From Lama guanicoe (Eukaryota): a stretch of DNA of 64,000 bases. Position 1 is the first letter of the stretch. Each line of letters begins with the position of its first letter. Both the position numbers and the translations under genes were made by a program. The stretch lies in contig MU054466.1 in NCBI GenBank assembly GCA_013239625.1, positions 248,001-312,000 on the forward strand, written 5' to 3'. Positions 17,601 through 60,729 of this stretch are shown one piece after another. Under the pieces are notes generated by a model, which was not told the DNA's origin, made no database searches, and worked only from the letters and a program-made list of their open reading frames with translations.

Positions 17601-20600
17601 CCAGCTTCCCGCGAGGGTCTTACGGAGAAGAGGATACCCAGAAAACCAGACAGAGTGGGATGGGTCAGACTGCTGGGCTGACACCCACGAGGGGCCCAGA
17701 GGGCGCTTGGGAGGGACAGGGGCACCCTCTGCGGGGGGTGTCCAGAGGCCCAGGGCCGCTGAGATGTGGGGACCTGGTGACTGATGCCTCAGAGGAGCCC
17801 CGCCGCACCAGGAAGACCCTTCAAGGGAGACCCCGGGGAGGGAGGTGTGACGCACTGCCTGCCCTCTGCCCTACGGAGGTCAGTGTGGCCCCAGGCATGG
17901 GCAGGGCCAGGCCCGGAGGGGACAGCCAGAGGACGTGCTCCAGCGGCGACCCGCTTGGGCACACGGGGTCCCCTCATGTCAGAAGCGGCCTCCCTGCTGC
18001 TGCGGTTTCATCTTCTTGACGGTAATTTTCCAGGACATGATGACACACGGAGAAAAAATGTGAAAAATATGTGGAGGTGACCTCAACCCCAGATCTTCCA
18101 GCTTCCTCGTGAGGGCGCTTGTCTTCCTCCCGCCGGCCCACAGGCCTCCCTCTCAGCCCAGACTCTCCTCTGACAATGGTTTTTGGTAACAGGGAACATG
18201 AAGCCTTTTCCCTTGAGGCTTGGAGCTTAAATGAATCACTACTCCAGGGACGCGGGCCAAACCTCTGTCACTCCCAGAGCCAGCCGCCCTCTGGAAGGAG
18301 CGCCGAGCCAGCACGAGGCTGACTGACCGGACAGCCCTGCACCCTGAACCCGAGCGCCTGGCCCGCCCGCCCTGGGCTGGCGTCCACCCCCGGGCCCGCC
18401 CCTCCTCGAGCAGAAGAAACGAGGGGAGAGCTTTCCGGAGCTGGAAAGGCTGGGCCAGGGTGGCACGCGGGTACCGTCTGAAGCGGGGCTGCTCCCAGGC
18501 GCCTGGTGTGGCCGGGTGCACGTGTCCGGGCACAAGGTCCACAAACCCCCAAAGGACTGAAGGAGCAGACACGGGGCACGATGGGGGAGGCTCTCCTCAC
18601 CTGCACACCTGGCAGCTGCCCCCAGGGAGCCCAGGGAAACTGGGCACTCAGGTCCGTGAGCCGCAGGGGGTGGACGCACACCGTGGACCAAAGGGCCAGG
18701 AGCAATCCCAACAGGGAGCTCTGTGCGCTGATCTGGACCGGGTAATGCAAACCAGGGGGGCCCGGGTGCCCACGCACCCACCGTCCACTGTGGCTCGCAG
18801 GCTCGACACCCATCTCTCCCCGAGTCATCGTGACTGAGACCCGGCAGGACAGAGACAGCTGGAGGGGAACCTGCCTGTCACCGGGCTTTAAAAACTGCCT
18901 CAAGACTTGGCCGGGACCTTCAAAGCCAAGGACCCGTCTGCCAGCAAACCTCGGCGGGCATTCCAATTGAAGCCAACACTGTTCTTCTCAGGACAGTTGG
19001 GCCCCTGGGCCGCCACCGGCACCCAGGGGGCATCCACCCACAGGGCAGGGCCAGGCCCGCACTGTGACCTGGGGCCACACATGGGGGGAAGCGGGGGTGC
19101 CCTTGAGGGGCACGTCACAGACAGGCACCCCAGGCTCTGGCCAGGCTCCTCCCAGCCCCGTGTTCTAAACCTGCCTGTAAGTAAAGCAGGGAGCAGGAGG
19201 CAAGGCTGACACCTGCCTGAGGCAGGGTGCAAAGTGCCGGGCGAGACCCTGGGGCCGCGTCTCCAGCAGACGAGACCACCCCCTGGAAGGTGAAGGGGGG
19301 GGACCGCTGTCAGCGCCCGCCTTGCCCAGGGGGTCGGGGCCTTTGATCACAGACCCCTGTGCCAGCTGCGTGGGGGGACGCCTGCTGGGATCACACCGGC
19401 AGCACAAAGGGCTGCGGGGCGGCCTCCGGGGCCAGCGGGAGGACTTCAAAGGACAGGCCAGGGGCCGCTGGGCAGCCCAGCCTCTCCCCGCACCCGGCTC
19501 TGACGGCCAGTAAAACTACCTTCTAATAATTAACGTTCTGAGATCAAAGGCGGTAGCCGCCCGGGTCTGTAAACCATCCCGGGCCTCAGCCGAGGACCTG
19601 CCTGCATTTTATCCTGTCTCTTCTGACTCTCTATTCAAATCCAAAACCACACACAGGCAAAACATTAATGGGGAACTTGGAAACTCTTTTTGATTACTAA
19701 AGTGTACCTTTGAAGTTCCCCCAAAAGTTCTGTTTTGTTCCCTTCTCCCCTCCCCCAGGACTTAAGGGGACACAAAGCAGACACCATGTGGCTGGCCGGG
19801 CCCCCGGGTGTGCGGCTGTCAGTGACAGGAGGCGTGAGGCAGGCGGGCGGGGGACGCTCCACAATCAACCAGCTGCTGGGGCTCCCAGATCAAAGACACG
19901 CACTGCTGGCAGCCAGGCGGACTGTCCCCGGGACCCCTCCTTCTTGGAGCCCCTGGGGTCAGTGCTCGGGGAGGCACTGGGACACTGCCCCTGGACAGCA
20001 ACCACATCCCGGGCCAGCACCAGCCCCCCAGACACCAGCAGGTTCCCAAGAGACACAGAGACCTGCAGCCTTCAGGGTGGGAGAAAGTGACAGCTAGCCC
20101 TGGCACCAGATTTCTGGCCCCCAAACCCTGGGGCCTCCAGAGAGAGCAGGTCCAGTGGGAGTCAGGCCCCAACCACAAGTGTTCGCTTCTGATGGCTGAT
20201 CTCAGGGTCCAGGCTGTGAGACAGGGGACTTCATGCTGTTTCTAATGGGGTCCATACACCAGCGTAGAAGCTACTGGGTCCCCAGAGGGCCAGAGCACTA
20301 CCATTGCCACCTCCCCAGGATGCACACCTGTCAGGGGGACTGCCTGGGTCCCCCACCCCTCCCCTGTCCATTCAGCAAGAACACACAAAGGGGGGCTCAG
20401 GGAACAGGAGTGGTCCCGGCGCCTGCCCCTTGGCAGGGATCCAGGCTCTGTCCCACGGCCAAGCCCCCCCCCAACTAGGCCCTGCAGGCACAGGTGCCCA
20501 ACCCTCCCCCATCCCCAGGGGTGTGACCTGGAGGCAAGAGTGAGGAGGAGGCCCCAGAGGAGACAGGATGCAGGCGGCGAGCTCCAGAACTAAAACGTTA

Positions 20601-23600
20601 GTTAACCACAACCAGCAGTGTTGCTAACACCATCACTGAAACGGGACGGATACCTGGAAGGCAAGGACGGCTTTATGGGGGAAACCGACCCAGGACCTCA
20701 CCACACAAACAAACTGAAGGAGGAAGAAGACATGGGGTCATCTCGACGTGGGAAAAACAGCTCATAAAGCTTTATAGCCCGCTTACAATAAAGAAAAATT
20801 CTCAGGACGGTGGGAATAGGAACTCCTGACTTGATAAAGGCTTTTCCACAGCACACATCATCCTTCAGGTAAACTACTGCCTCCAACGTCATGGTCAAGG
20901 TCAAGCAGGGACGCCCACTGAACTGGCTGCCAGTCAACAGACACCAGAGGCCCAGCCACTGCGACATGACAAGAAAACACTTGAGAGAAGGAAGAGCATC
21001 AAGACAAAAAACAAAACTGACATGACTTGCAGAGACTCCAAGTGAAGCCAAGCACTGCTGGAACCAGTGAAGCAACAAGCCCACAGCCTTCCAGCCCCCG
21101 GAGCCTCCTCAGGGGCCAAGCCCAGGAGGTGGGCAGCCCAGTGCTGGGGAATCCACATGCCTCTACTGGCAGCAGGGTCTGTGAGCACTGTGCAGTGAGC
21201 AGTCACATGGAGGGACCCCAGAAGGCAGTGGAAGCTCAGTCGTATGACTTGTGACAGCCCTACTGAAGAAGGTCCTGCACCAGCATCCAGCTGGAAAACA
21301 CCCCACAGGGGCTCAGGCCTGTCCCCTAGCTTAGATGCTCCGACAGGGCTGCAACGGGCCAGGGCAGCCTGACCCACCAGACCGGCACCATCAGATGGAG
21401 GGGTGGAAGACACTGGTGCGATGCCAAGAGCCACCTGCAGAAGTGTCGCCCACCTGGGGGGGGGCCCTTGCTCGAGGGGCCACTCCCTGACCCGTCACTG
21501 CCTGTTCAATGTGACCCAAATTGCAGGACGCCTTCCATCGCTCATGTCTGTTGCGGTCAGAGCAGTGGACAGGGGTGGGCATCACTATGGGGGAGGGGGT
21601 GGGACAGGGACGACTGGAGCCCGAGGCACTCAAGGACAGACTCAGCATCGAAGACAACGTGCTGCTGGCAAAACCTGCCCAACACTGCAAAACTGGTGGT
21701 GGTGTCTACACAGTAAGTTATACCTCAACAGAGCTAACCACACAGAGAAGACGTCAAAGTGGCAGCCCAGGGCCCAGGCCAGTTCATCCCAGCTCAGGGA
21801 GAGCTGCAGCCCTCCTCCCAGCTGCGGCTCAGGGTGGCCAGGCGCTTCCACGCCCCAGTCCCTGCCGGAGACGCCCAAGGCCCCACCCACAACGCCTGTG
21901 AAGGGGGAGCAAACTCGCCCTCTCCCGCCTGTTCAGGGAGCGCCCCACACGCCCACGGGCTGGTGGCGCAGACAGCGGGGGAGCTGGGGGGATGCCCGGC
22001 TCAGGGGTAAGCGTGGTGTGGGACAGTCAAAGCCAAACCTCCTTCACGTCAAAAGCCAGCCAAAGCCAGCAGCCCAGGCAGAAAGTGGCAGTGCCAGGAG
22101 GCAGGTTCTCCGGCTGTGACGTGGCTATGGGGACACACAGGTTTGCCAAAACCTACCCACCTGCATTTCTAAAATGATGACTCAACGAAGCTGATCTCAG
22201 ACCGAACAAAACCCCAAGAGCGCTCCCCAGAGACGATGACAACGCGCCCAGCAACCCTGCTGTACCCCAGGCTGACCGGCCGGAGGTCAGGCCACAGACA
22301 AAGGACCCCGGCGCCCAGCACGCCCTTACCGGCTCCGGCTCCGGCTCCGGCTCCGGCTGGGGCTCCTGGCCAGGCCTTGACTTCTTCGGCTTGGAGGGGC
22401 CCGCAGGGCTGGAGAAGGACTTTGGCAATTTGGCTGAAGATGACATGAGAGGCCTTGCGGACCCGGAGGGGCCCCCCAGCCGCTGTCCTCCACCCGAGAA
22501 AGGAACAAAAGGGGCAGGTGAGGGCTCCTTCAGGATCTGCTCTGTCTGAGCGTCTGTGAGGCCGGCCCCCAGGCTGGCTGTCTCGTCCTGATGGCTCACA
22601 TCGCCCTGGCTGAGCCCGGCTGAATTCAAAGGAAGCCGAGGGCCGCTGGCGGCCTGCTCGGCCTCTGTGGATGGCATCAGGCTTCCCGGGCTTTTGCTCC
22701 AGGAGGGCCCAGGCTCCTGCTTGCCAGCAGAGTCACATCGCTTCATGGCAAACCTGCAGGGGGAGGCCCAGAGAGCAAGAGAAACTCCACACTCAGCCCC
22801 TGCCCCCGGACTCCAGCGTTGTGCCCTCTGGTGATGGCCACACCAAATCCAGTCCCGTGGATGCTCGACTCCCCACGGCCCCATCCCGTCCACCGCTCCT
22901 GGGGACAGGAGCACATACGGGCCCCCATGCAGCCCTGTCCACCCTGCAGCCAGCAGACCCCTGACCGGACACACCACGCCCCACGGCGCCCAGCCTCCCA
23001 GGCTGCTGGCGGGAGAAGCCACTGGGCAGGGCAGCTGGGCGTTCCCATGTTTGCTATTCCCTGTCCTCAGAGACCCCAGCTCTCTTTACCAAACCAGACT
23101 CAGATGCCCCCACCTGATGATGGCACTGCCCCCGGTGAGGCCCAGCGACTGCAGTGTTGTGCTCTGCAGGGCAGCCCTGCCAGTCACCTGTTGGGAGGGA
23201 AGGACATCCTGCTGACCCCTCCCTAAGCGCCCTCCGCCTGCCAAGCCCACCACGCGCCACCTGCCTCCGGCCGGGCACTGTGTCATGGGTACCGCAGGGT
23301 CCCCTGAAGGCGTGGGTCCAGCCCCTGCACCCTAATCTACACCCACGTGTTTGTCAGCTGGCCCGCATCGGTCCCCCCACCCCACCCCATGTGAGGGCTT
23401 GGCAGGCAGAGCTCGGGCCAGGTGAGCCAAATCTGGCCCGCGGACCAGCCCTCTGAGCGCTGGGACTGACCACGATGGCCCCAATCCAGGCCCAGATGCC
23501 CGAGGCCCAGTGGTCTGTCTCCTCCAGCGGAGGGAGGGCTCGTGCCCCAGACGCCTCCCACTCACAGCCCTAAAATACCTGCCCTTCTCAGCCCTGGGTC

Positions 23601-26600
23601 AGGAATCTCCAACTGGGATAAAGAGGTGGGCGTGTCTCGTCCACATCGCGGGGCCCTCGGGGATGGCGGCCACCCCCGGCCAGGAGAGGGCGCTTGGCCA
23701 GGGTGAAAACAAAAAGCCCCTGTGAGCCAGGGGACCAAGTGCCAGGAGGGTCCCCGTCACGGGCGGGCAGGCGGGGACAGCAGGGCCTCAGTGCCAGGCC
23801 AAGCCTGCACCACGCCGCACTCGTTTTGAAAAAGATCAAAACACAGAGCAAAGCAAATATTTATTAAAATGAAACCACTTTTGTGACTCCTGGGCTTTGG
23901 GAGAAGCTGAGAAAACAAACAGGGCTCTGAGGGAGGTTTGGGAGCAGCCCGGGCGGCCCGCGGTCGGTTCCAGTGGAGCCGGCGTCGTGCCTTTTTTCCA
24001 TGAAACACATCACGCTTTCAGAGCCCAAGTCTCCCTGTCGCTGGTTTGAAGGCAGGTCTGAGGGAGTGAATTTTCCAATTGGAAAGTGGGGCTGGGCCTG
24101 CGTGAAGACAGGGAGTGGGCGGCGGGGCGCGGGCCAGGCGGGCGGGCCGGCAGCTCACCTACCTCACCCCTCATGTACACGCAGACTGGGCTGGCCTCAC
24201 ACGGCTGCTCCAGACACTCCCTGCAAGGACAGAAGAGAAAGCGCCACAGGTGGCTGCTGCCGGGGGGCACGGGGGCCCTCTGGACGGTACCCAGCCAGTC
24301 ACCGTGGAAAACTGCCCGCCCTGACTGCCCCCATGGCTGGCCGTCAGCAAGTGGCCTGGGGGTGTCTCCCACCTGCCTCCAGGCCCAGAGCACAAGAAGG
24401 ACACAGAGCAGGGGCACAAGCCTCGGGTCACTGTCAACTGTGCTTGGGGTTGGCAGTGAAAACCTCCCAGGGACCCTGAGAAGCAGCAGTAGCACTTGGC
24501 ACGAACCCACTATGTGGACTCTGAGGGGGGCTTGGGGGTGACACCAAGACAAATGGGGCAGCGGAGGGGTGGACACCGCCACCAACGTCCTCCCCTGTAA
24601 ACCAGAGCTTAAGATGGGAGGGAAGGGCACCGGGAAGGACAGGTGGACAGGCTTGAGGATGCGGGTGAGCGGGCACACAATGTCACCCACACCCACGGGA
24701 CAGCCATCCCCACCGCGCACCGACCTGCGCTGGCCCTCGAGGTTATGGGGCACCGCGTGGCCGAGCCCTGACTCAGGATGGTTAAATGGCTGGCAGCAGG
24801 CCTGTGACAACCAAGTAAAGTTGAGTCCTACATCTCCTGACACAGAACTACAGAACTGGCGCCCAGATTGACGCCCCAGGCCCCAGGGCTCACACGGACA
24901 CACCCCGCCAGGACGGGGGAGAGTGGCTGGCTGTGACTGCACACGGACGCTCCAAACACTGGTGACCGCACACTCCGTGTGGGCTCAGCTCCTTTCGCCA
25001 CCTGTCTCTCTCATTCACTTTCAGTTTTTGCTTCTGTGTGTTTCCCTGGGCGAGGACACACAGCCCAGAGCCTGCTGCAGGGGCCCCGGGAGGAGATCGG
25101 CCCACGCTCTCCCCAAGCCTGTGCTTTACCAAGAAGCTGCTCCCCAGGGAAGGCTTCCGGCCCTCAACCAGGACAACGAGCAACGCAGGGCAGCCATGGT
25201 AGGTGTGGCCCTGCACACGCGGCAGGGCCAGGTCATGACCCAAACGGCGGGGGAACTGGCCCACCAAGCCCCAGCAACCCCCGGCCTCAAGAAAACCCGA
25301 GACTCCGAAGCACCAGGGAGACGACCCCAGCTGGGCCTGCGCGCTCTTTGTCCTGAGGCCAATACAGAGAAGGAGCGAGGGAGGTGCGCTCCAGCAAACA
25401 GGGTCGCAGGACCAGGAGGGGGAAGGAGGTGGGGAGACGTGGGGGTCCCCTTTCTCCCAAGGGCGACAGAGACAAACACCTGGGCTCAGAAAGCGGGCTG
25501 ACCGCCCATCACGGGACAAGCGGGGTCCCCTCTGCTCTCAGGGTCTCCGGCCAGGAGTCCTCACCAGAGATCCCTGCCCAGGGCACCCGATGGTGACACG
25601 GGGGACCACAAATCATAAACAGGGATAACGCACGGCAGCGCCCGGGAAGGCCTGCTTGCCTGCCGCCCTCAGAGGCCTTGGACATCAAACAGCCGCGGCT
25701 TTGATGTCGGCTCCTCCAGGGGGATCAGGTTCCCGAGTGTGGGATCTGAGGAGAGGCCTGTAAACACGCCGAGGGGAGGAGTGGCCGCGATCGCTTCCAG
25801 ACCTTCTCGGCCGATTAGCAGCCTCTCCCATCCACGCGCAAGATCAGGGACCTGGGCGTTCCAGGGCGTGAGGGAGGAGAGCCGCCCCTCCCCCAGTAGG
25901 TCTTGCTGAAGGTCTGCGGGTCTCCAAGGGAGCTCAGCAGGGCTCCCGGGACCCCTGGACCCTGGACCTGCTCCCACACCCCTGCCCGGGCAGAGCCACG
26001 GGGCGCCACTTGGCCTGGAAGACGGTGCCGGGGGTGATTGGTGGGGTCTTGTTCCCTCTAAGGCCAGCAAACCTGTGCCTGTGGCCGGGCCAGGGGCCGG
26101 GTGGGGCGGGGGCTGCGGCTGCTGTGTTCTTCACCCCCGCAGAGAGGCCACCTCCTGGGCTTGGGCCGTGACACCAGGAGCCTTCCCTGCAGAGATGCCC
26201 AAGAAGCAGAGGTGAGACTGGCCAGCCCACTCGAGGCCAGTGTTATCTACGGCGGGTACCGGCCCACGTGGGCACGAAGCATGCCCAGAGCCGGCACGGG
26301 GGAGGCCGGCTCCAAGTGTGAGAGCTCCTACCAACAACAACATGGAACACCTCCTCCCCCACTGGCCGCGTGCACAGAGAGCGGCACCTGGGACACGCCG
26401 GGCTGAGTTAACTGTGTTCCTGAGATTAACTGCGCCTGCTTTCACTTTCCTTTGCTGTGGCTGCCAGAACACTCTGAATCACCTCTGTGTCCGCACATGT
26501 GGCCCACGTGGCCCAAACACTGGACAATTAGTTGCTCCAGATGCTGGGGTCAGAGCTGGTCACCATCCACCCTGATCCCCAGGCAAAGGAGCCGCCGCCT

Positions 26601-29600
26601 GACCAAGAGTGGACCTGTGCTCACCCACTACGGCTCCCGGCCACGCCCGGCACACCAGCAGCTCTCAGACACTTACCTCCTCCTGGAAGCTTCCTGTGAG
26701 AAAAACCAGCTTCCCGCCCATCCCACTGTGGGGACCCCAAGACTTGGGCTTCCCAGAGCTGCCAGTCCCCAGGTGTCAGGGGGCCGCCCCACGTTGGCAG
26801 GGCCCCGCAGTGGTGGGCGGCTGACTGCACTCCTGCTCGGCCGCAGCGCAGCCTCACCAGCTCATCTGGTATCTGGCCACGACGTGGGGGCCGAAGACGC
26901 CACCCACCCTTGCTCATCTGAACCCTACTTCAAACACCAGCTTCCAAGAAAAGGCCTGGATCCGTGCTCCTGGAGATGACGCCCAGGCAAGTCCTGGTCT
27001 GCAGGTCCAGCAATGCCGCCTCTAGAGTGACAGCAGAGAAATGACCAGCTGCCTGACATCAGTGGGCAGGCAGCACACATAACAGGAAACAAGGCCGCAG
27101 GAGTGTCCAGGAAGACAAGATGGAGTCACAGCAGAAGAGAGGGTGGAGGACACCCCCCCACATGATCACCCCCAGGGCCTGCCTCCTCCTGTTGTCACCC
27201 TGCTCTTCTGCCATTGCCCCGCCACCCCCAACCCGTCCTATTCCTTACATCTTAAGCCCAGCTTACCAAGTCAGCCAGTCCTGAGAGGCTCGTGTGAACC
27301 AGCGTTCCCAGAACCTTGGTGCCCTCCCCAGAGGCAGGCCCCGGCCGCCTGGCCAGTGGCCTGAGAGCCAGGGGAACTTCGGCCATCGTGACCGCACGGT
27401 GACCCAGGCTCCCCTGTGCGGGCAGCTGAGGAGCCACCGGCCTTGCTGCCCCGGGCCACTCCTCATTTTGGTGGGAACAGCCTGAGCAGAGGGCCCCAGA
27501 GGCACCTGCGTCCAACGTCTGCTGCCCCAAGGGGCCCCCTCCGCTCCCCGTGCCCCACGTCTGCTCCTCCCAGGTGGATCCGCCCAGCTGCCCTGCGACG
27601 GAGCAGACCTAGCAGCTAACTTGGAGGGTACATACGGTACACACACGACCTTCCGAGTCCAAAGATGGCTTTGTTCCACCCTCACCCCTCAGTAATCTGG
27701 CAAAACAGAGAATTCTAGAACAGGTCAATTTCCTGCGGCATGCTGAAGGCACCGCTCGGCCACCTTGCTGGTGGGGCCACAGGGAGCCCGAGGCCTGTGG
27801 AATCAGCCCTCGAGCCGAGCTCCAGAGGCGTCCCACCGGTCCAGGCACAGGAGGCCGTCACCCTGGAAACACACACCTTCAGTTCCAGGACTGTTTACCG
27901 TCTCCCGTTTCCTCTTGTGCCCCTCTGTTCTCTTTCCAGAGACGCAGCAGCAGGAGCCACATCCTGGCCTTCCGGCTCCCCCTCCTCCGGCCTCCCTCTG
28001 AGTGGTGGGCCGCTTGGCTCTGCAGCTGCTCCCCAGGAGGCACCTCAGCCAAGACGGCAGGGACCCTGCGCCCCAGGTCCAAGCGTCTCGTGGCCCCACA
28101 TGCCCTCAGGCGTCTGCCACCACTGCAGATCAGCCAGGCCGGCTGACCCTTGGGCACACGAGCAGCTCCGCAGCACCTCGTCACGGGTGGCTGGCGCTGA
28201 CCACTGCACCTCCCACTGCGGCTCTCCTTTACGTCCCAAGCACCCTTTCTTGTCACTGAGCATTCCCTTTCCACGGCACCCAGCCCCAGTTCCAACAGCT
28301 TCTCCCTCCTGGGAGAACAGGACCAAACGCCACCACCCATCCCAACAGTGGCCATCTCTTCCTGGCTGTCCGTGCTGGCCTCTCACAGTAGTCGTCTTGC
28401 TCAGACAACTGGGCACACTTGGCTGTGGCTCTCGTTTACACCTGGGGCCCTGGCCGCAGTGCAGCTGCCTGTCATTTTCTGGGTGGGGACCTGGGGAGCC
28501 ACCCAGGCCCACCATCGGGAGCTGCCGGTGCTCCGGGAGCCACATGGGGGGGCTCAGGCTCACCTGACCCCTGTTCTCGGGACAGGGCTCACAGCCCCAG
28601 CCGTGCAGGCAACCCCAGTCCAGAGAGCCTACCCTGCCCAGGGATCCACCTCTGGCACCAGCAGCGTGGAGTGGGAGGGGATCCAGGACCCCATCTCATC
28701 GAGCACCTGCCCTGGCCCCCCCCCACGTCCTGTGCCATCACTGCCTCAGCTCCGTGCTCACTCTGTCCGTCTTCCAGGCTGTGTCTCTGCACGGTCCCCT
28801 GAGGTCATTTTAGAAGCTTTCTGGGATGGAGAAGAATCACACGCTGGCTTCCAAGCGTTCCTCCCACTCCTCCTTGCTGCCCCCAGGCCTTTGCACTTGC
28901 TGCCCCTGGACCCAGATGGCTCCTTCCCTGCGCCTGGTGCATCTGGCTCCTCCAAGACCTCCCCCCCCCACGGCGTTTTGCCTTCCCTGTGAAATCTGAC
29001 TGCTCTGTACACCTGCCTGTCACTTCTGGGAGACGAGCACCCAGCTCCCTGCTGTAGACCCAGCCCGGCCCGCGCTGAGTAAGCGAAAGAATGCAGGAGA
29101 AACGGAGGCAGAGACCCCACCGCCTCGGCAGCACAACAGCTAAGAAGGCCAGTGCTGGCACCCGGGCCCCGGTCTCCGAGGAGCCCGCGCTCCTCCGGGT
29201 CTCCATCCCCTCGGCTGAAACAAGGGCACCAGCAGCCCGACCGCCCAGCTGGCGGCAGGCGCCAAGGACAGCACAGGCAAGTGGCGGCCTGTGTGCTCAT
29301 CTCGGCGGCAGCGGGTGGGGTCACCCTAGTGGGGGCGGGGAGCTCTCTCAGGAGAGTGGCCGGGAGGGCAGAGGCTGGCCGAGGGTCGGAGGAGCAAGGA
29401 GGGACCCCTGGGTCTCATCACAGGAGGAGCTGGGCAAGAGGGGCCACCAGCACACGAGGTGGGCAGAGGAGCCCATCCGGGCGGCGTGGGCCAGCGAGCA
29501 GGAATCTGGCTGTGGGCGCCACGGTCAGATCAACCAGGCCGGAGCAGGCTTTCCTACAGTGAGGCCCCATCACCGGGGGCCCTGCCCAGAGCCCCCCCTT

Positions 29601-32600
29601 CCACAGAGACAAACCATGCGCCAGGCCCTGACACCAGCACTTGAGACACATTAGCTCATCTCATCTTCACATCACCCCTCGGAGGCCCAGAGAGGGCAAG
29701 CAACTTGCCCACGGCCACACAGCAACCAGTACACTCTCCCACGGTCCCTTCCACGCTGTTGGCAAAGATCTTTAAAAGCAGACACACTTTCGTCCCACAG
29801 TGAAAAACCAAAGCTTGAAAGACTACCGTTTCGACACACTGAGGAGCAAAGTTTAAGCCATTAATCACCAGATAGAAGCTGGCAAGCTCGTCCAGGAGAA
29901 CTATGACCAGCTGTCACACAGGAAACCCAGCAAGAAAGACAGGCCACTGGCAACCAGCACCTGCTGCTACAGCTGATGAACAACGGCCCGTCTCCCCACA
30001 CCAGTTCTCTTACCAGGGCCACAAAGCCCAGCGGCACAGCCTCCGGCACAGGCACAGCTCGGGCTTGTGGTCGAGACCAGTCCCGCTGATCGTGGCTGCA
30101 TCCCTGCCACAGAGGGTGGCAGAGCCTGGAACCTACCCTCTGACACTTACCTGATCTGTGCAAAATGGCTGAGAAGCTCCCAGAGCGTCTGGCCTGAACA
30201 GAAAGTATCTTGCAACCTGGAGCCATCATCCAGCTGCAGAGCTATACGCACCTGCGGGGGAGACGTGGAACCCAGTTAGGGAGAGCAGCGGGTCCCACTG
30301 GGCTGGGTCTGATCCTCATGGGGCCGGCGGAGGGCATGCCCCATCTCCGGGGCTCCGGGGGCCTCACGGGCACGTGGGAGCCAACACCAGGGTACGTGCC
30401 GCTCCTCCGCACACGCTCTGCCAAACCTGCAAACGTCTGTTTGCTGTTGTGTCTCAAGGGGCCAAGTTTTGGAGTAATTCGTTACATGACAGACAACTAA
30501 CATGCTGTGTTCGCTGAATTCTTCTCACAAATGACGACGCTGCTTTCTAGTCCATCTTTAACAACTGTCTCCCTAAATTAAGACACGAGTCTATAACCCA
30601 AAAGGGGGGAAGTGCTCTCCTGTCTCTCTGCCTAGTGAGACACACGCAGAGCAGCACGGGCAAGCAAACTGGAGCACGGGGCTGGGCCTCGGCCGGCTCG
30701 GCGGGCCCGCCCGCCCCGCCGGCCCCACCCCGCCGGCCACGGCCCCACCCAGCCCACGGCCCACTCGCCCATGACCGCGCCCACAGGCCCCTGCCCAGCC
30801 GCTCTGACCCCGGGTCGAACGCTTGCCTTTCTAGGTTGTCGCTACTCCTGCCTTTCTGGCCCAGGGACTCTTCTTCAGGGGCACAACTATTTACGTGAAA
30901 TCCCAGTAACAAACAAAGGAGGACCTGCTCGTGGGAAAGTGCGAGGGGGTTTCCTAATCACACCCCAAGGAATCCCCAAGGGAAGTCAGGGTTCCTTCTA
31001 CATGAAAGGCTGAGAACCACAGCTGCCATGGAAAAAGAGGGGTACTAGGCTCAGCCCCCGCCGCTGACTCCCAGCGCGCTCTGGAGAGCGGACATTGCCC
31101 CCGGGCCCCAGACTCCTCGTCTCTAGACAGGGAGGAAAACCACTTCCCTGCTGTGCTGGGAGAACACATGGCTTTGCGTGTAAAGGACTCATGTAGGCAC
31201 AAGAGGGCAGCTAACGTGATTACAGTCTCCATCCACAGTGACCCAACCGTCACTCACTGAATCTCTGGGACCTAAAAGTTACTGATTTGGTCGAAGGCAG
31301 TGGGCTGCAGTTGGAAGACTTGGGCTGCGGTCTAGCCAAAACCTGTCCACAGAGGCCTGTGCCAGCTGTTTCCCCGTCCCACAACTGAGGCTGTGCTGGA
31401 CACCTCACAGAGCCCTGCGGGATCTAAGATTCTTGATGGTTTTATGACCAGAGACACCAGGTCACATGGTGAATGCTGCCAGCGCGGTGAGACAGACACA
31501 GCACAATTAATCACCCCACCACTCCAAAAACATTCAGCATAAGGAATGAAAAATCTCATCTCCAATCATCAGTTTTCAAAGCAGAAAAGTGGCCCCGGCT
31601 TGACCGATAGAAGGCAACCTCCCCCTGAGGATGGGTGCCTGGCTTGCAGGGTGCTCTTCCAGCAGCAGGCATGCCCTGCCCCTCTGCCGGGCCTGCCGAG
31701 CACCCTGCAGTCCAGCCTGAACGAGGGAGCCGGGAGAAGCAGTATGGCCGGCCCCTGCCTGAGCGCCACCTACCATGGTCTCGGGCCCCTCGCGGCTCCG
31801 GGAGATGGGCACCATCTCCAGCTTGGCGTTATTAGGCAGGTTGGCAAATCTCCACTGGAGAGAGAGGTCAAGCACATTTCTCTGAAACCTGAAAAACAGA
31901 CCAGAGCCTTGGGCTGCCTGCAGACCCAAACACGCCCCTGTCCAGTCCCCATGCAGCCCAGCCAGGAGCAGGAAACAGGCAGTGAGGGCCGGCGCACAGA
32001 AACAGCAGGTCCCCAACCCCAGCACAGGGTCTCTGGAAGGAAAGAGAGTGAGCGCTGACAGCTCAAGCAAGAATGGAAGGAACACGGGCAAGTCACCCCT
32101 GGGCAAGCCAAGGGCCTGCTCCTCCACCCTGGGGAGCAGTGACCAGCCCGAAGACAGACCCAGAAAATTCCTAATAGAACAATGCCCTGTGGTTGAAGCA
32201 GTCCAGCCACGGTGATCACTCTCCCTGTAACTGGTCCCCAAAGACCAGTGACAGATGGCAAAGGTGCCAGAGAACCACACATGAAATGAGCCAGTCTGAA
32301 GTCCCTACGAAGAGCCAGGCCCTCATGGCAGCCAAGAGTCGCAAAGCCAGGGCCTCCCAGCCTGGAGCAGCCCATCAGTCTCTGTGTCCCTGTCCCGCAG
32401 GTATCAGCTGCCGCGTGGGGACCTGGCAGCTTTAAGCTTCCAATGGATGAGGAAGAGGCCCACACCGGCCTGCAGCCTCTTCTGATCCTCACGCACAGAG
32501 CTCCTGGGTCCACGGCGGGACAGTATCCTGGGAGGAAGTGGGGGGAGCAAAGTGAACTGGTGAGTCAGGAAGGGGAATAACCCAGGCCAGGAGAAGAGGG

Positions 32601-38229: not shown

Positions 38230-40300
38230 TGCATTTGTGCAAGCATGTGTATTTATATTTGAAAGTAAGTTGATGAGATCCAGGCACTTTCCCTCCAAAT
38301 AGTTCAGCAGCTCCTCCAAAAATCCCAGGACCTGCTCCTACTCAGTTGTAACCAGTCACCACGCCCGACAACCAAGCAGTCATGGACACAATAATATTAT
38401 CTAACACACAGTCCAGTTTAGAATTTCCCCTGTTGTCCCCAAATGGTCCTTTACAGCCGGTTGTCACATTGCGTTGAATCTGTTTTCACTCCCTTAACTT
38501 ACCGCGGCCCCACCATCTTTTGTTTTGTTTTGAATTTTCATGACATTTGCATTATTTAGAGGCCACAGGCTGGAGCTGCCTGATAGTTTCCTGGAGTTAA
38601 ACATCTGAGGCAGTGAGGTGGGGTAGATGAAGCCCCTCAGGAAGTCCAGGAGATCAGGTTGTGCCCCTAGTGTGGACGCACAGACTGAACACTTGGTCAA
38701 GATGAGGTCTGCAGGTTCCTCCACGGTCTAGGTCCCTCATAGACTAAATAAGCTGTGTGTGGGGTAATTCTTTGAGAGCATAAATGTGATGTGTTGCCAA
38801 TAACCATTTGCCCGGTGGTTTTAGCGTCAGTTGATGGTCCTTGCCTACATCCATCGTTATAATTATGTTTGCAAAATCACAACTTTCCAACCTTGTCACT
38901 TCCTCTACATTTAATAGGCATGTTTTGGTCAAGATTTTTTAAATTCTGAAGTATTAATACAAATGAATGGATTTTTGAAATTCAGTGATTCTTTCTGATG
39001 CTCAGATTGACCCAGATTTGGCCAGTGAGACCCCCTTCAAGCTGACTTTTGTGCTCCTTTTTTCTAGGGGGGGGAGTGACTTTTTACTTTTATATCATTT
39101 CAAACTCAGAAGTTGCAAGAGCAGTATAAGGAACTCCTGCGTATCTTTGTTTTTTCTTCTCTTTTCTTTTTTAGGGGGGAGGTAATAAGGTTTATTTACT
39201 TTCAGTGGAGGCAATGGGGATTGAACCCAGGACCGCGTGCGTGCTAAGCACGTGCCCTGCCACTGAGCTACACCCTCCCCCGCTTCCGTGTGTCTCCTAG
39301 ACAGACGCGCCAGTTGTTTACGTGTTGCCCGTTTGCTTTACCATCTCTCTCTTTCTTTCTCCACGTACATATAACAATTTTTCTGTACCACCTGAGAGTA
39401 ATGGAGAGGGCACCTTCGTGGCTAAATACTTTCTTTCCTAAGAAGAAGGTGTTTTCTAAGAAGAAGGCATTTCCTTACGTCACCACCGAGCCGTGATTTG
39501 CCATTGGGAGAGCTACCCATGACGCCGTACACTGAGCTACTCTACAACCACCTGTAACACTGACATCTTTCCTGCATCTTTTTGAGGTGTTTCTGTTATT
39601 CTCCCAGCACTTCCTCATTTCTGCCACAAGACGGCGTCCTAGGCTCTCCCAGCCCTTGAATGCACCATTTCTCAAGGAAGCCCTGGACCCTTTTGGAGGG
39701 GAATGGGATTTAGAAACCAAGATCTGGAGCTGAATGTGCTCATTGCTACTGGGGTGCCTCTGCTTTGTAGGCCCCTCTTGGGGGACAGAGCTAGCATCCT
39801 GAATTCGCCCAAATCTCTCTCACTCCAAACCACACCTCAGTCTTCTTTCTCCTCTCCCCTCCTTCCATATTTACATTTGGTGGAATTGTATGAAATTGCC
39901 AAGAGTCAACCATTTTCAGTCTACAAAATATGGGAAACCTACATGGTTCCACTGATACCCTTTCTCCACAGTGAGAACCCTTTTTTCCAGCAGTATTACT
40001 ATATTTATTAACTTGTTCTGTTCCAAAATACCCTCCAAATAGCTTCAGAATTCCTTCTACCAACCAGACCTACTAAGGAAATGTCAAGGCCTCCTTGTAG
40101 GTATTTTTGTCCTCAGAAAATTACTTAAATTCTTTATTTCTGTGTGATTATGTTAATCTGACACCTAAGTTAATCTATTACTAAATTTTAAGGTCTTTTT
40201 TTCTTTTTTTTAAAATGTAATGTTCTATTTTTGATTATGAAAAATATTTCTTATTTTATTTAAATATTATTGGATTGAAAAGTTAAAAGTATAAGAAGAG
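38230..40300 (-). mobile_element. Degraded L1 (L1MC4/5-like) fragments in an AT-richer intergenic block
   Basis: Drop in GC; motifs such as GAAAGTAAGTTG...AATTTCCCCTGTTGTCCCCAAAT and TGATGCTCAGATTGACCCAGATTTGGCCAGTGAGACCCCCTTCAAGCTG. Boundaries approximate. Confidence 0.55.
39148..39282 (-). mobile_element. tRNA-Ala-derived SINE (vic-1 type)
   Basis: GGGGATTGAACCCAGGACCGCGTGCGTGCTAAGCACGTGCCCTGCCACTGAGCTACACCCTCCCC is the reverse complement of the SINE head, preceded by the T-rich tail. Confidence 0.88.
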
Positions 40301-43300
40301 ACATAGCCAGAAAAGGATCACCCCTCCTCATCCATTCTCACTCACCCCCGGAGGAACTCATCTGCTTCAGGTTCTAGGGTAGCCTTTCTGCCTTTCTTCC
40401 CGCAGAGATGAGCATGCTAAGTGGACAGAGGTGCAGACTCTTTCTCTCCTTCCTTCTTCCACAATAGGTAACACAGAACATACCTTCTTTGTTCTTTTCT
40501 CTACAGCCTACGTGTCCCATTCTGGGACTAGGTCTAACTCCGTTCCCCTCTACACACAGTACATCCAGAGTACAAAGTCTGTGATATGGGCGGTCACAGC
40601 ACCCAGGCGGCCCTGGGAGTGGATAGCAGTGAGGTCTAGGCTCCCCTGCCCACAGTGAGTGGAGCTTTGACACCTCCTAGCTGCCTGGGCCTGTGTTCTT
40701 TGTCGGTAAAACTAGACCCAGGGAGGTGGAGGCTCAGGCAAGGGAGCCAGACAGAGCATCCCAGGCAGCAGTTCCCCCAGGTGGCCGTAGGAAGCCCTGA
40801 ACCCAGTCAGAAGGTGAGGCTGGGGTCGTCACCCAGGCTGCACAGAGTCCCTTCAAGCCTGGCCCAGGCCCCGGCGGAGTGCTGGGGTGGGGGTGGGGGG
40901 GTAAGGTTTTTTCCAGGTATCCCTAGTGGGACCAAGCCTGTGTTCTCCAAAAAACAATATTTCCAATTGTCATTCCATTAGGACTTCAGGTCACAGGTTA
41001 GGGGTAAAAATCCCCTGGCTGGGCTGGCCTGGGAACCGATCTCCCACGTGAACCCTTGGGAAAGGCATGGCTCCCTCTCAGAGCAAGTGGCCTCTCGGCC
41101 CCTCTGAGCTGGACCCTGGGAGGCAGGGCCCTGCCCCATGCCCTGCTTACAGTCCAGCCAAATGCATTGGAAATATACATATGCAAATATATACATAAGT
41201 GTGGTAAAATTGCATTTTAAATTTAATCAGCTTAAAATTTGCTTTCCAAGACAGGTCTTTCAGGAGATTTTCTGTGTTATCAATACGGCAGTGGCTTTCC
41301 ACAGCCAAGGAGTAAAACGTAAGGTCCTGGCGGCCGCCTGCTCTCCACCCTCACCGCCCTCCACTGCACCGCACGGCCTCGCCAGTCCTTGCTCTCTGTC
41401 ACTGAGTGCCGGCATGCTCAGCCCGCTCCCCAGGACTTTCCTCAGCTCCCTCACGGCGCTAGGGCTATGCCCACGTGTCACCCACAGGGGGCCTCCCTGA
41501 CCCCATCCCACCTGCTGCCCTCTGCCAGGTGTCTACATTTTCTCTCCCCTCCTGACACCACATCATCCCCCCACCCCACCCACATCAGGTAAGCCTGGGA
41601 CAGGACCCCAGTGAGCAAGTGTGTGATTGTCAGTGCGTCAGCGCATGGGGCTGCCCCACGCCGGTGTCACTTGGTGGCCTCCAGGCAGGGCAGACACCTG
41701 GGCAGGTGAGAACCTCGGCTCATCCTCACACGAGCAGGAGAGATCACACTGCTGATTTCCCCAAATGAGCTGCATGTCTAAGTTGCCCCCCGACCGGCTG
41801 GCAGAAAAAATCAGCACGCTGGCTTCAGGGGCTTGCTGGGCCCTTGGTGTCCTGCTCTAGGAAATGGATCCTGGCCCCCAGGTGGACGGCGAAGGTGTCC
41901 CTGCAAGGGGTGTAAGCGAGCGCTCAGTGCGGCCCCCACCGCCCTCTAACCAGCCCTGGGACGCCAGCACAGTGGGGTCTGGACAGGGCAAGGGAGGCCA
42001 CCTTCCCACCCCTCCCCACCAGAGTGCTCCCTCCCAGGCAGTGGCGGCTTGACAGCTGTTCCCAGGATCTGCTTTAAATTAAAAAGTGGCGTGGCCCTTT
42101 AAGAGAAGCATCCGCCGCCCCCGCCGCCCTGCTGCCCCCTTTGAAGTTGCTGGCGCTGAAAGGTTCCCAGTGGCAGATCTGAGGGTTTGCTTCTGCCTCC
42201 CCAGAGGCCACGTGCGGATCACAGGGAGGGAGTGGGGCGGGCCGAAGGTCACATGGCCAGCCAGGCCTCCCTGGACCAGTGGGCTGCAGGGATGGGGACC
42301 AGCCGGAGCTCATTAGGGCTCGGCAGAGCCAGCAGCTAGGAGAGCTAAGGAGGAGGTGTCCCGCCCTCCCCGCGGGGCCTGGGGCAGCCTGACCTCCCCA
42401 AAGCCCTCTGATCTGCACAGTGAGGAACACACCTGGCACTTTGGGGATGCTCCATGACACCCCAAGAAGCTCCATCTCCACAGAGGTGTGGACAGCCCCT
42501 CCTATCCCCATCCCCTTCCTCCCCCCAGCTTTGGAATGTGGCCATTCCCAGCAGACCCAGGTGGACCCACACTCCACAGATTGCTCAGGTCAGCTGAGGG
42601 TCCCTCTGCTGAGACTGCCCACCAGCCAGGCGGGGCTGTGTGGGGAGGGTGAGATGGGGCAGAGGTACTGAGAGGTGGACAGATCCTTACAAATGACCAG
42701 TAGGGTCCAGGGTCCCCAGGAGTTGAGCCTGGGGCCAGGGAACCCCATGCGTCCTCTGTTCACTGGCATGAGGGGCTGCAGAGTGAGCCCCAGGGGCCCT
42801 CACCACTCAATGACGACAGCCCTGACTCCCACATGCTCTCAGTCCTGGGTGAGGGGTGTGTGGGTCCCTTCTGCAAGTGACCCCAAGGCTGCTGACAGCC
42901 ATCTGATTCTCGGGAGAGGGTGTCTTCTGGTATCAGGCCTGAGAGCTGTCCATGAAGGCCTGGGACCAACCAGGTGTTCCCGGCTTTGCCCTCCCCTGCT
43001 TCTGCACCAGACCCCTCCAGGCTAGGGCTTTTCTCATCAGGGCCCTGGGATGTGAGGTGAGAGGGGCTCCTGCAGACAGATAGGGGGCTTGGGGAGACCC
43101 AAAGGGCTCAAGCTCTGTGGCCACACAGCCTGGGCTTGACGCCCCTGCCCGCTCAGGGCTGGTGACGGACCCTCAGCTGGTAGGCGAGCAGGGCTTCCTC
43201 TCAGAGCCAGCCACTGTGGGGAGCGAAGTGGTCTGCCTCACTTCCTTGCCTTCTTGGGCCTCAGAGGCCAGCAGCTGAGACACAGAGCCGCCCAGGTGGT

Positions 43301-45870: not shown

Positions 45871-47384
45871 CAGCAGGAAGCACAACCCTAGGCAGGCGTG
45901 ACGTCCCACTGGCAGCAGAGCTTCCCTGCCCAGGACTTGGAATAACTGGCTCCCAGAGTAGAGGGCTCTTGGGACAGGTTCTCCCGATGCCTAGGTAGCC
46001 GTGGGCAAGGGGGACACTGCCGTTTGGGGGACCTTTGTTTGAAGTGCCTGCCTCTGGCCAGCCCCACACGTGGCCATTACGATGGCCTGACTACAGGGGG
46101 GTGGCAGGCGTGGGTTTCCAGATGAACAGAACTCCCCGTCCACTCTTCCGCTAGTGTTTCTGAGTCTCAGTTTCCCTCATCAGGAAGATGGGTGCACAGC
46201 TGCTCCCCAGTGCCAGTGGGGAGGACTTGTATTTTTCACAACCTGCCCTTTCCTTCACTGCGTGACTCCAGGCAAGGCCGACCTCCAGGGCACCTCAGCC
46301 TGATCTTCAGCTTTGAGGCTTAAGCTCCAGCTTAAACCTCACCCAACAGCTCTCAAGGGCCCTGTCTGGTCTCCTGGAGTGTCTTCCAAGAGCCTGGCCT
46401 GCTGTGTGGTGTGCAGGGTGGGTGTTGCAACGTTCTAACCTGCAGCTCGATACTGGCCCCAGGACTGGTGAGGACCGTGCTCGGGGCCGACAGGGCAGGA
46501 GGAAGGCAGGAGCGGGGTCCCCGTTGCTGCCGGAAACTCCCGCAACCTCTAATTTCCTGCCCCAGAGGGGCTGCAGGTGCCTCCCAGGGGACAGCTTCCC
46601 CACTGCCCTGGACTAGGAGGGGGCTCAGGGAGCCCGGCCCCGGTTCTAGATCCCAGTGCCATAAGACCTATTCCCTGTCTCTAAAATGGCATGATGACAT
46701 TCACGGAGCTGCGGCTGGGAGGGGAATGAGGTGTCCACCAAAGCTGCCGATGGCACTTGGTGTGTGTGGAGGCGGAATAAATGCTTTTCTTTCTTTCGTC
46801 CACCTAGCCGGCCAGGGCGGAAGCCTCCCAAGTGAACACCTGCACCCCACCCCATTTTGATTTCTGAGGAGGCATCTCCTCTGCCACCAGTGAGCGCGCT
46901 GGGAAGGTGAGATGATGGAGCAGAGGTGCTACGTTCGGCGGAGGTCACTGAACAGAGACCAAGCCTGCAGCTCTTCGACCCTTGCCCACGCCCCAGGGGC
47001 GGCTGCGGAGGGAGGGGTTCTTGGGGATCCTCCTGGAGGAGGGGGGCACGAAGCCAGGGTGCACGCGGGGAGGATCCAGGACCCCACCCCGAGGCCCACC
47101 GACCTCAGTAGGTGGCAGCGCCCCGTCTGCCCCCGCTGCCTCGGAGGGCCGCTCAGATTCTGTCCACCCAGGCGCGGGACAGGGCGACTCCCCCGTGGCG
47201 CCGTGCCGCGGCGCCCGGTTCCTCCCGCAGGTCGCCGAGGGCGCCGGGGCCTCGCGCCACACCTGTCCGCTCCTTCGGGAGGCCCCGGCGCCGCTGCTGC
47301 CGGCCCCTCGGCGCGGAGCCCTGTGTCCGCCGTCGCTTTGATCCCGGGGGCCCCGCTGGATAAAAGTCCCGGGCGGCTCCGCGC

Positions 47385-48256: not shown

Positions 48257-51200
48257 ATGGGCCGAGGGGTGCGCGTGCTGCTGCTGCTGGGCCTGCTGCA
48301 CTGGGCCGGGGGCGGCGAGGGCAGGAAGACCTGGCGGCGCCGTGGCCAGCAGCAGCCCCCGCCGCCGCCGCCTCCGCCCCGGGCCGAGGCGGCGCCGGCG
48401 GCCGGACAGCCGGTGGAGAGCTTCCCGCTGGACTTCACGGCCGTGGAGGGCAACATGGACAGCTTCATGGCGCAGGTCAAGAGCCTGGCGCAGTCCCTGT
48501 ACCCCTGCTCAGCGCAGCAGCTCAACGAGGACCTGCGTCTGCACCTCCTGCTCAACACGTCGGTGACCTGCAACGACGGCAGCCCCGCCGGGTAAGGTCC
48601 GCAGCCGCCCGCGCGACCGGCGCGCCCCTGCCGGTGGCCCCGGGGCCGCGGGCCGTCTTGTCGCCAGTGGGGTCGCACCACCGCCTCCCTGTTTCCGCCC
48701 AGACGCACGGAGTCTCTGCGCTGGACCCTCCTTGCTGGCCTCAGCGGTGCTCGCCCCGGGGAGAGGGCTCCCGTCGAGCCTCGGAGGCGCTGGCCCCGGA
48801 GAGGCCCGGCTCGGCGACCCGCCGCGCGGGGGGTGGGGCAGCGATTGAAGCCCTGGTACCAGGCCAGCCCGGGCACTGACCCCTCGGCCACCGGTGCCCA
48901 GCCCCCGTGCTCGCGTCCTTCGGTCCCTGGGCGGGGAGATGGCGGTCCGAGAGTGGCCCTGGCTCCAGCAGGAGGAGGCGACACAGCGGGGCGGGGAGAG
49001 TCCTCCCCCGTACTCCCACCCCCACCCCAGCTCGACTCGCCCCGTCTGCTGCCTGCGGCTGCCTGGACTGCCAGGGATCCCAGCCAGCCGGAGAGACAGG
49101 CAGGGGGCGCAGGTGGGACGGAAGAACCTGGGGTGCGGCATTCGCCCATCTCCAGCCCGAAGTAGATGGAAGGAAGGATGCGAGGCTGGGGGTTGGGGAG
49201 GAGTTGGGGGCACCCATGCCCTCAGCGACTCCACAACACGAGGAACGCAAAGTTAGATCGGGCCTCGGTAGGACGGCTGCGACCCGCCTCTGTGGCGCCC
49301 GCGCCCCTCCACGCCCGCCTGTCCGACCCCAGTGCCTCTGCCCCACGCACACTCTTCCAGCGAGGGCGCTTTTCACTCTCCAAGCGCCACTGCGAGCCTC
49401 AAGGAGAATCCCGAGCCCCAGTGAAGACCCCCCTCCTCCGCGCCGGGCCGCGGGCGCCGAGGTTACAGCGCGTCCCGCGCGGGGCGGGCCGTGGGGATTT
49501 TCCACGGATCACACAGCCCCTCGCCGCCCTTCCCCGCCCTGCGAGCGCCATCTCCCGGAACTGGCCGATGCTGGCCGGGCCGGGCGCGCTCTGCAGGGGC
49601 CTGGCCGCTGGCGCCCCCGTGCGGCGCGGGCGCTCGGCGACAGGTGGAATGACCCTTTCCTCCCCGGAGCTGGGCCCTGCAGCCCAAGCTGACCACCCGC
49701 TCTGCCCGACCTCCCTTGCAGCTACTACCTGAAGGAATCCAAGGGCAGCCGACGGTGGCTACTCTTTCTGGAAGGTGAGTCCCAGGGGCTGAGGAGGCGG
49801 GTTGGGCGAGGGTCCCCTGGGCACTGGACCCTGAGGTGGTGGCTATGCACGCAGGAGGCTGGTACTGCTTCAACCGGGAGAACTGCGACTCGCGGTATGA
49901 CACCATGAGGCGCCTCATGAGCTCCAAGGACTGGCCACGCACTCGCACAGGTCAGCAGGCCATGGAGTGCCCAGGAGTCCCCTGCTGGGGGAAGGGGGCT
50001 GACAATCTGAAGTTCTGGAAGAAGCCCCCCTCCTTCACTCCCTAGAGCCCCAGAGAGGCCCCACTCCATCCACCCCTCCCCTCCCCCAAGGGTAGGGAAC
50101 GCTCACACTCGCTCTTCGTGCTTATTCCACAGGTAACTTCCCAGGGCTCACCGTGCCTGTGCGGTACGTGGTCGGTCCCTAAATGAAAGCAGTTGGTGGA
50201 GTGGCCATGCCAGATATCACAGCCTGGCTGGGCATCCTGGCCCTGGTGACTCTGTGGAGTAACTAAACCCGTCCATTCCCCACTTCCCTGGCCACCCTGG
50301 TTCAGGCAGGTGTCACCACCCACCTCCTTGCTGGGACCAAGTAGGATACCCCCACGTCCCCAGCCTTCCTGCCGTCCTCATCCCTGTATGCCCCCTCCCC
50401 CCAGAAAGACCCACTGCCTCTGTCCTCCCGGCCACAGGCACGGGGATCCTGTCCTCCCAACCAGAGGAGAACCCCCACTGGTGGAACGCCAACATGGTGT
50501 AAGAAGGGGCAAAGGGTCCTTCCTGGGGGTCCTGTCCATGGGAGTCCTTCGTGGACAGTCCTTCCTAAGGGGGCTCTTAGGGGGAGTCCATCTGAGGGGT
50601 CTTGTCCTTGGGAGGATCTTGTCCTGGGAAAGATCCTTCCTGGGGCAGGGGTCCTAACCTCAGGAGTCCTTCCTGGGGAAGGTGGTCCTTCCTGGGGTCC
50701 TTGGGCAACAGAGGAGCATGGCTCACGTCGTCCCTGTGTCACAGCTTCATCCCCTACTGCTCCAGTGACGTCTGGAGTGGGGCTTCATCCAAGTCTGAGA
50801 AGAGTGAGTCCCCTGGCCTCCCCCTCCCTCCCCCTCCCAGAGCCAGGGCAGGGGAGATGGAGATTCTGGGGAAATACAGACTTTCAGCCTCGTCACTTCC
50901 TCTAACCCTTTGATATGTGTCCCAGGGTGCCCGTCTCCAGCACCCACTGGCTGGCTTGTACATGGCAGGCCTGACCCTTGGGGGGGGCGTCGCTTCTGGG
51001 TGTTCCCTGGGAAAGGGCCCCCAGAACAGCCTTGTATACCTGATCCACCTCCCTTCAGTCTACCCCAGCCCCTGGCCTCATCCCCTGGAAGACCCTCCAA
51101 GCCCCCAGCTCTATCCCTCCCCCTTCCAACCTGGGGGTAGGAGGCCTTGCTCTCTGCCCAGGCCCCTACTCGAAGCATCCTCCTTCCCCGTGCAGACGAG

Positions 51201-54200: not shown

Positions 54201-54738
54201 CCGGAGGTCAGTGGCCCTTGCCCTGGGATAGCTCGCATCCCTGGCTCTGCTCCAAACATGAGGCACCCCCACCCCAGCATGCCTGCCCTCCGCCCTCCCA
54301 GGCTCTGGCTCCTTTCTGGGGCTTTCAAAGCCACTTACATACCAGCTGTGTAGCAAGGATTCTGCGGTAGCAAGGCCGTCCCCTGCTTGGCCCCTCCCTG
54401 AGTGACCCCCAACCTGGGTTTCTGTCTGTAGCCACTGGACAGACGTCCAGGTTAAAGGGACCTCGCTGCCCCGGGCGCTGCACTGCTGGGACAGAAGCCT
54501 CCATGACAACCACAAGGCCCGCAAAGCCCCCCTGCAGGGCTGCCCAGTCCACCTGGTGGACAGCTGCCCTTGGCCCCACTGCAACCCCTCCTGCCCCACC
54601 ATCCGGGACCAGTTCACGGGGCAGGAGATGAACGTGGCCCAGTTCCTCATGCACATGGGCTTCGATGTGCAGAAGGTGGCGCAGCAGCAGGGCCTGGAGC
54701 CCGGGAAGTTGCTCGGGATGCTGAGCAGCGAGAGCTAG
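48257..54738 (+). CDS. NOTUM: Palmitoleoyl-protein carboxylesterase NOTUM (Wnt deacylase), 500 aa; exons 48257-48591, 49722-49774, 49855-49950, 50438-50498, 50745-50803, 51196-51298, 51940-52131, 52277-52377, 52899-53046, 54159-54206, 54432-54738
   Basis: Signal peptide [14 protein letters not shown]; [29 protein letters not shown], nucleophile GSSAG, WLFDEAQ (Asp) and CLSHEII (His); 1503 nt in frame ending TAG; all junctions GT-AG. Confidence 0.98.
50513..50705 (+). repeat. Degenerate minisatellite (about 13-16 nt unit, GGTCCTTCCTGGG) in NOTUM intron 4
   Basis: Roughly a dozen imperfect copies of GTCCTTCCTGGGG / GTCTTGTCCTGGG fill most of the 246-nt intron. Confidence 0.8.
53195..53705 (+). 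mobile_element. L1MC-like 3' end in NOTUM intron 9
   Basis: AAAGGCAAAACCCTGGACACAGTAAGAAGATCAGTGGTT...CAACACCCAGAGTGAACCCTGATGTGAACTGTGGACT...TGTGAACCTAAAACTTCT. Confidence 0.85.
53706..53945 (+). mobile_element. tRNA-Ala-derived SINE (vic-1 type) with partly duplicated tail
   Basis: GGGGGAGGGCATAGCTCAGTG...GGTCCTGGGTTCAATCCCCAGC followed by two AAACCTAATT(G/A)C..CCCCC blocks and (TAAA)n. Confidence 0.88.
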
Positions 54739-60552: not shown

Positions 60553-60562
60553 CTATTTATAG
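60553..60562. promoter_or_regulatory. MEF2 consensus site upstream of the MYADML2 ATG
   Basis: CTATTTATAG fits YTA(A/T)4TAR exactly, as an isolated AT patch in GC-rich DNA; E-boxes CAGCTG, CAGGTG and CAGATG lie within 400 bp upstream. Confidence 0.65.
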
Positions 60563-60729
60563 CGCTGGGGGGCCCTCCCCACACGGGCGGCAGAGAGGCG
60601 GCTCTGCTGCAATGTCACCCCGCGTCACCGCCACTGCGGGCTGCCGGCACCTGCCGCTGCCGCAGGAGATACAGAGAAGAGACCCCGGGGCCGCCAGGCA
60701 CTGTGTGGGGTGGGGAAGCGGCCGGCCAC

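Follow-up and report, generated by a model that had tools for sequence, protein, structure and literature searches.

Introduction

NOTUM, which the Wnt pathway controls as a feedback target, inactivates Wnt ligands. Its gene is among the direct CTNNB1 targets reported in one study (PMC3961325). Wnt response elements (WREs) carry HMG sites, with the consensus SCTTTGWWSWW or CTTTGWWS (PMC4154663, PMC4267635, PMC4999783). For the accompanying helper sites, the same papers give GCCGCCR, RCCGCC or GCCGCY, and minimally RCCG. The first-pass annotation of the DNA described here had used (C/G)TTTGATS as the TCF consensus; the published forms (PMC4154663, PMC4267635) read otherwise.

Bipartite HMG-helper sites for C-clamp proteins are described as AK, RW, FF and KK pairs (PMC4154663) or as HMG sites with RCCG or RCCGCC (PMC4267635). 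For fly TCF, a helper in any orientation, zero spacing included, was bound better than the HMG site alone (PMC4154663). Zero-spacing upstream pairs were moderate (IC50 38.7-66.6 nM) or weakest (189 nM) in those data, and the best pairs reached 5.1 and 9.4 nM. Separately, it has been argued that RCCG confers no isoform-selective occupancy (PMC3479169). Axin2 CREAX and c-Myc-335 represent a further type, the clustered-TCF enhancer (PMC8421206).

In liver tumour organoids, common Wnt peaks are places bound by beta-catenin with LEF1 or TCF7L2 (PMC13273282). Three of these peaks surround NOTUM in the published datasets. Peak 590 is 6.9 kb upstream of the gene. Peaks 591 (hg38 chr17:81,991,750-81,992,900; Datasets S1 and S4) and 592 are annotated to ASPSCR1, 'intron 3 of 14' and 'intron 6 of 14' of NR_045351, respectively.

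Here we describe a camelid element in the corresponding intron of ASPSCR1. With a probability of about 0.6, it is one of three distal WREs of NOTUM and acts via one canonical TCF/LEF site. Its position and sites are observed; binding is proposed by analogy with the human region, where beta-catenin with LEF1 or TCF7L2 occupies three places in the same order as the camelid sites (PMC13273282). The human region is already on record as table rows, and the camelid element is newly described here. Our literature search, of open-access work with subscription papers and bioRxiv supplements mostly outside it, returned no paper characterising the element. The result is a useful annotation, not a new mechanism.

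An inverted repeat in intron 4 of ASPSCR1

The window, meaning the whole stretch of 64,000 nucleotides that was analysed, is from a South American camelid. Its best-matching ASPSCR1 proteins are camelid, with a 99% match to an alpaca entry in exon 7. The genes of most concern are as follows.

35477 to 8621, minus strand: coding span of ASPSCR1 (TUG), from Pfam and tblastn
24220 to 30149, minus strand: ASPSCR1 intron 4, the host intron, about 5.9 kb (exon 4 at 30251 to 30150; exon 5 from about 24219)
48257 to 54738, plus strand: coding span of NOTUM (start codon at 48257; frame of the last exon ends at 54738)

Downstream of NOTUM, one long frame that encodes a MARVEL domain (60397-61653) belongs to what we take to be MYADML2, given the human order ASPSCR1-NOTUM-MYADML2. 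Within intron 4 of ASPSCR1, the element is 1.5 kb away from exon 5; relative to NOTUM, it is 22.5 kb upstream of the start codon. Judged from the neighbourhood alone, NOTUM is the likely target gene, with ASPSCR1 as the other candidate. A coding role was ruled out, with zero ASPSCR1 exons overlapping the element. An exon-like stretch 360 bases away (26072-26206) matches an extra exon of one predicted alpaca ASPSCR1 isoform (P0028; 89% over 47 residues) and is missing from the other five camelid isoforms mapped.

The element has these parts.

25681 to 25708, no strand: two inverted arms of 9 bp, separated by a 10-nt spacer; single genome copy
25698 to 25708, plus strand: canonical TCF/LEF HMG site GCTTTGATGTC, exact CTTTGWWS and 10/11 to SCTTTGWWSWW
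25681 to 25691, minus strand: degenerate inverted TCF site TGTTTGATGTC, with G in place of the core C and the S position also off
25692 to 25699, no strand: helper-like core GCCGCGGC, RCCG on both strands, 6/7 to GCCGCCR
25663 to 25669, plus strand: GCCGCCC, a better helper-like word, 11-12 bases past the far end of the left site

The first-pass annotation had called this a near-perfect 28-bp palindrome of two inverted TCF sites. The quoted string is found exactly at 25681-25708, with perfect 9-bp arms and a central GCCGCGGC. The spacer is CA followed by GCCGCGGC, and the whole is therefore a 26-bp palindrome that bulges by 2 nt on its left side. One of the two TCF sites survives scrutiny. The right arm contains the exact 8-mer CTTTGATG (25699-25706), and its sequence marks GCTTTGATGTC as the likely working TCF site. 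The left arm is mismatched, has no core C, and is predicted to be of low affinity. Only one exact CTTTGWWS site is present within 250 bases. The element resembles CREAX and c-Myc-335 as a distal element of a Wnt target with TCF words in flexible arrangement, but differs from these clustered enhancers in its single exact site (PMC8421206). A cluster in ASPSCR1 intron 7, described below, is closer to type.

Symmetry and chance

As a palindrome, the element is ordinary. When the window underwent block-wise dinucleotide shuffling, a bulged palindrome of at least 13 pairs turned up in 105 of 1226 rounds. Among the 28 inverted repeats listed in the window with arms of at least 8 and a spacer of at most 12, five have arms of at least 9. 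Two further statistics, both picked after seeing the element, concern its TCF words. Two STTTGATS words no more than 30 bp apart occurred in 32/1226 shuffles, and the Markov expectation for an inverted 9-base copy within 20 bp of any of the window's 23 CTTTGWWS sites was 0.002 per window (0.028 for a 7-base copy). An inverted repeat of a TCF word is uncommon in one window and not rare across a 2-Gb genome.

Template switching is a source of short inverted repeats. The right arm could be a lineage-specific TCF word beside a working enhancer, its inverted copy being the product of chance or of a local template switch, with no function of its own. We regard this reading as possible but doubtful. 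The shuffle frequency of bulged palindromes favours it, as does the genome-wide count of paired sites given below. The low expectation for an inverted 9-base copy goes against it, and so does the enrichment of TCF words around NOTUM. Briefly, CTTTGAWS words number 16 in the window against a shuffle mean of 6.9 (reached in 2/1226 shuffles), and the best 1-kb cluster holds 6 TCF sites against a mean of 1.6 (1/1226 shuffles). The symmetry itself is probably incidental, with no special mechanism indicated.

It is scarcely credible that the repeat is a cruciform, a pre-mRNA hairpin or the remnant of a MITE. Thirteen pairs can form and the arms do pair in predicted folds. However, folding was no better than in shuffles (z -0.89 as DNA, -0.37 as ASPSCR1 pre-mRNA) and Rfam gave no match at the element. 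Both the 28-base string and its surrounding 301 bases have a single match in the genome of 2.05 Gb, and no flanking duplication is evident. The lone multi-copy piece in 22400-31950, by a search that skips very common words, is 44 bases long (29682-29725) with at least 32 similar copies elsewhere. With folding at shuffle level, Rfam blank and the sequence in single copy, we rejected the hairpin, cruciform, ncRNA and MITE readings. A MITE origin, which the first-pass annotation had named as one outcome that would undo its own proposal, thus finds no support. Elsewhere in the window, at 2467-2538 and 39206-39277, Rfam gave weak tRNA matches of about 40 bits, which are probably the heads of tRNA-derived SINEs.

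Helper geometry

The original proposal for the element had been a symmetric HMG-helper-HMG WRE. Two TCFs would bind back to back and the C-clamps of E-tail isoforms (TCF7, TCF7L2-E) would grip the shared GCCGCGGC, giving isoform-selective or cooperative action; the 2-base bulge would shift the left site clear of the helper. We consider this unlikely. In its favour, the arms share TTTGATGTC, the core offers RCCG on both strands, and both core CpGs are retained. The benefit of helpers in any orientation for fly TCF also speaks for it.

The details of the sites do not fit this proposal. The left site reads GTTTGATG, which fails CTTTGWWS; hence the element lacks the second consensus site of a symmetric two-TCF element. 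A short helper, RCCG, is found within about 11 bases of the HMG site; 13% of 14-base stretches drawn at random from this GC-rich window contain RCCG as well. So the core is helper-like to the extent of RCCG on both strands. Reading GCCGCGG, it matches none of the extended forms RCCGCC, GCCGCY and GCCGCCR. It also overlaps the good site by 1-2 bases (spacing -1, -2) and is 0-1 bases from the weak one (spacing 0, 1). None of the preferred non-overlapping spacings (upstream 2-9 or downstream 0-11) is found. Zero-spacing upstream pairs are the moderate or weakest ones for fly TCF, and the argument that RCCG gives no isoform-selective occupancy (PMC3479169) also counts against the proposal.

Compared with described bipartite sites, the element is alike in having RCCG directly upstream of its HMG site or sites. 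It is unlike them in that its 6/7 helper abuts or overlaps the sites, where 2-9 bases upstream or 0 downstream is preferred. Two sites sharing one core is a layout not described in the available parts of those papers (PMC4154663, PMC4267635).

The layout does not form a family. All genome-wide counts here are lower bounds. The search for the same arrangement that the first-pass annotation had suggested returned a single occurrence of the full HMG-helper-HMG layout. Two sites at the element's spacing occur at least 4 times, against at least 1 for a control pattern, and CG is absent from the spacers of the remaining three. For perfect TCF sites in divergent pairs, with spacers of 6-10 bases, the count is at least 25 against at least 18 for the control, and RCCG is between the sites in 0/25. 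Genome-wide, nothing indicates that an HMG-helper-HMG grammar recurs. Convergent perfect pairs with the same spacers show a larger excess (at least 26 against at least 8 for the control), which may reflect a general excess of inverted repeats.

A stronger version of the proposal is that of a conserved back-to-back two-TCF element, its C-clamps sharing a palindromic CpG helper, that serves as a cooperative, E-tail-selective and possibly methylation-gated feedback switch for NOTUM. This is distinctly improbable. If true, a two-TCF element with a shared helper would be a new grammar for vertebrate WREs. If the symmetry and core were conserved and needed, they would bear on an open question, the C-clamp's function at vertebrate enhancers.

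Correspondence with human Wnt peaks

Three other places in the window carry TCF sites of interest.

18918 to 19895, no strand: sister element in ASPSCR1 intron 7, a 1-kb cluster of six TCF sites that is collinear with human Wnt peak 592
42113 to 42148, plus strand: sister element with a TCF site at 42139 and 3-4 RCCGCC helpers within 250 bases
47328 to 47345, plus strand: TCF site 47336 in the NOTUM promoter CpG island, with an abutting GCCG word

Peak 592 was compared with the intron-7 cluster using the entries listed for the peak. Its three WREs have the strand pattern of the camelid sites 19549, 19451 and 19348. The first spacing is identical (98) and the second is 121 in human against 103 in the camelid. 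By eye, 15 of the 22 short-motif entries listed have the same word and offset. Of the rest, 3 share the offset alone, 3 are shifted by 5 bases, and 1 is missing. Since peak 592 is collinear with camelid intron 7, the intron numbering is fixed and peak 591 can be interpolated.

The lone exact WRE listed for peak 591 interpolates to 25290-25352 of the window. The camelid site, at 25706, is within about 400 bp of this place. Both the human WRE and the camelid right arm read CATCAAAG on the sense strand of ASPSCR1. The chance of this 8-mer is 0.007 per kb, and camelid intron 4 has just 2 CTTTGWWS sites. The two also share the intron, a similar GC content and their order among the three peaks around NOTUM (PMC13273282). 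The coincidence of word, strand, intron and approximate place argues against a lineage-specific word without function.

The flanks are less alike. With the human WRE aligned on the right arm, 0/46 of the short-motif entries listed for peak 591 match in word and offset (by eye), entries that end 88 bases short of the WRE and so leave the human spacer and left arm outside the comparison. Next to the 15/22 of intron 7, this favours the reading of a lineage-specific word. If the alignment is moved by about 85 bases, a value selected post hoc, 7/46 entries agree within 3 bases (by eye). The camelid arm would then lie opposite a non-canonical human stretch, and the human exact site would be another one. 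The flank mismatch is not decisive, because peak 590 also agrees poorly in its far flank (2/22 in the 500-base list). Compared with what is listed for peak 591, the camelid copy adds a second, degenerate site in inverted orientation and a GC spacer that is palindromic, at an offset before which the human entries end. Peak 591 itself is known from a table row, not as a characterised enhancer (PMC13273282).

Other human datasets cover the region. In SW480 cells, beta-catenin ChIP-seq gave a peak assigned to ASPSCR1 (hg18 chr17:77543410-77543988), and CTNNB1 knockdown lowered both ASPSCR1 (-0.87, -0.90) and NOTUM (-1.35, -1.16) (PMC3961325). TCF elements in ASPSCR1 introns may explain the listing of ASPSCR1 among beta-catenin targets. 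Given the offset between builds, the SW480 peak presumably falls inside peak 591. In DLD-1 cells, ChIP-seq of wild-type dnTCF1E placed a peak with 1 WRE and 4 RCCGCC 7.0 kb upstream of NOTUM (PMC4267635), which is the place expected for the camelid site at 42113-42148. With a build offset derived from two NOTUM rows, the wild-type dnTCF1E sheets hold zero peaks at the places of 591 or 592. Peak 591 is also missing from the LEF1/TCF7L2 differential file of PMC13273282, and its long-helper cell is empty. These results tend to run against E-tail C-clamps acting on a shared core. The missing dnTCF1E peak also counts against the WRE reading of the element, although the same list lacks the intron-7 cluster too. 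The supplements of PMC10112916 and PMC5386305 contain zero ASPSCR1 or NOTUM rows.

Frames crossing the element were used as protein queries. The minus frame found one match and its cluster mate (99/102 and 39/40 residues identical). The element is intact in two frames of these near-identical proteins, which are from close relatives alone and too near to gauge conservation. The plus frame found 0 matches, and a whole-library search with the element-crossing frames added just one unrelated repeat protein. In a metagenome motif scan, the flanks of 6/6 loci were unlike the window, and these loci were read as microbial.

Probable distal control of NOTUM

Two features of a WRE are found at the element, namely an exact CTTTGWWS site and a Wnt-induced gene within reach. 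The element is probably a TCF/LEF WRE, because it is 22.5 kb upstream of NOTUM and a beta-catenin/TCF peak is in the matching human intron. The CpG observed/expected ratio also favours this reading: it reaches 0.70 over the 300 surrounding bases and 0.44 over the host intron. Hence, of the original proposal, the assignment as a WRE probably holds and the symmetric helper design falls away. In the simplest scheme, a single TCF of any isoform would bind the right arm through its HMG box and bend the DNA. When Wnt is on, this TCF would recruit beta-catenin. The weak left site and GCCG core might add a modest boost at most. The element would then loop to the NOTUM promoter, perhaps raising ASPSCR1 too. 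It would act on NOTUM jointly with the promoter site and the two sister elements, the cluster in intron 7 and the site at 42.1 kb.

Distal control of NOTUM would thereby be pinned to three TCF-bearing places, two of them in ASPSCR1 introns, which are short testable targets. An inverted GCCGCC helper is 5 bases upstream of the 19549 TCF site in the intron-7 cluster and, from the listed human motifs, appears conserved. On its sequence, the conserved cluster at 18918-19895, whose helper is correctly spaced, would be the best candidate for a C-clamp-type NOTUM enhancer and a better lead than 25681-25708. At the promoter site, 47336, the GCCG word has the same overlapping geometry as at the right arm of the element.
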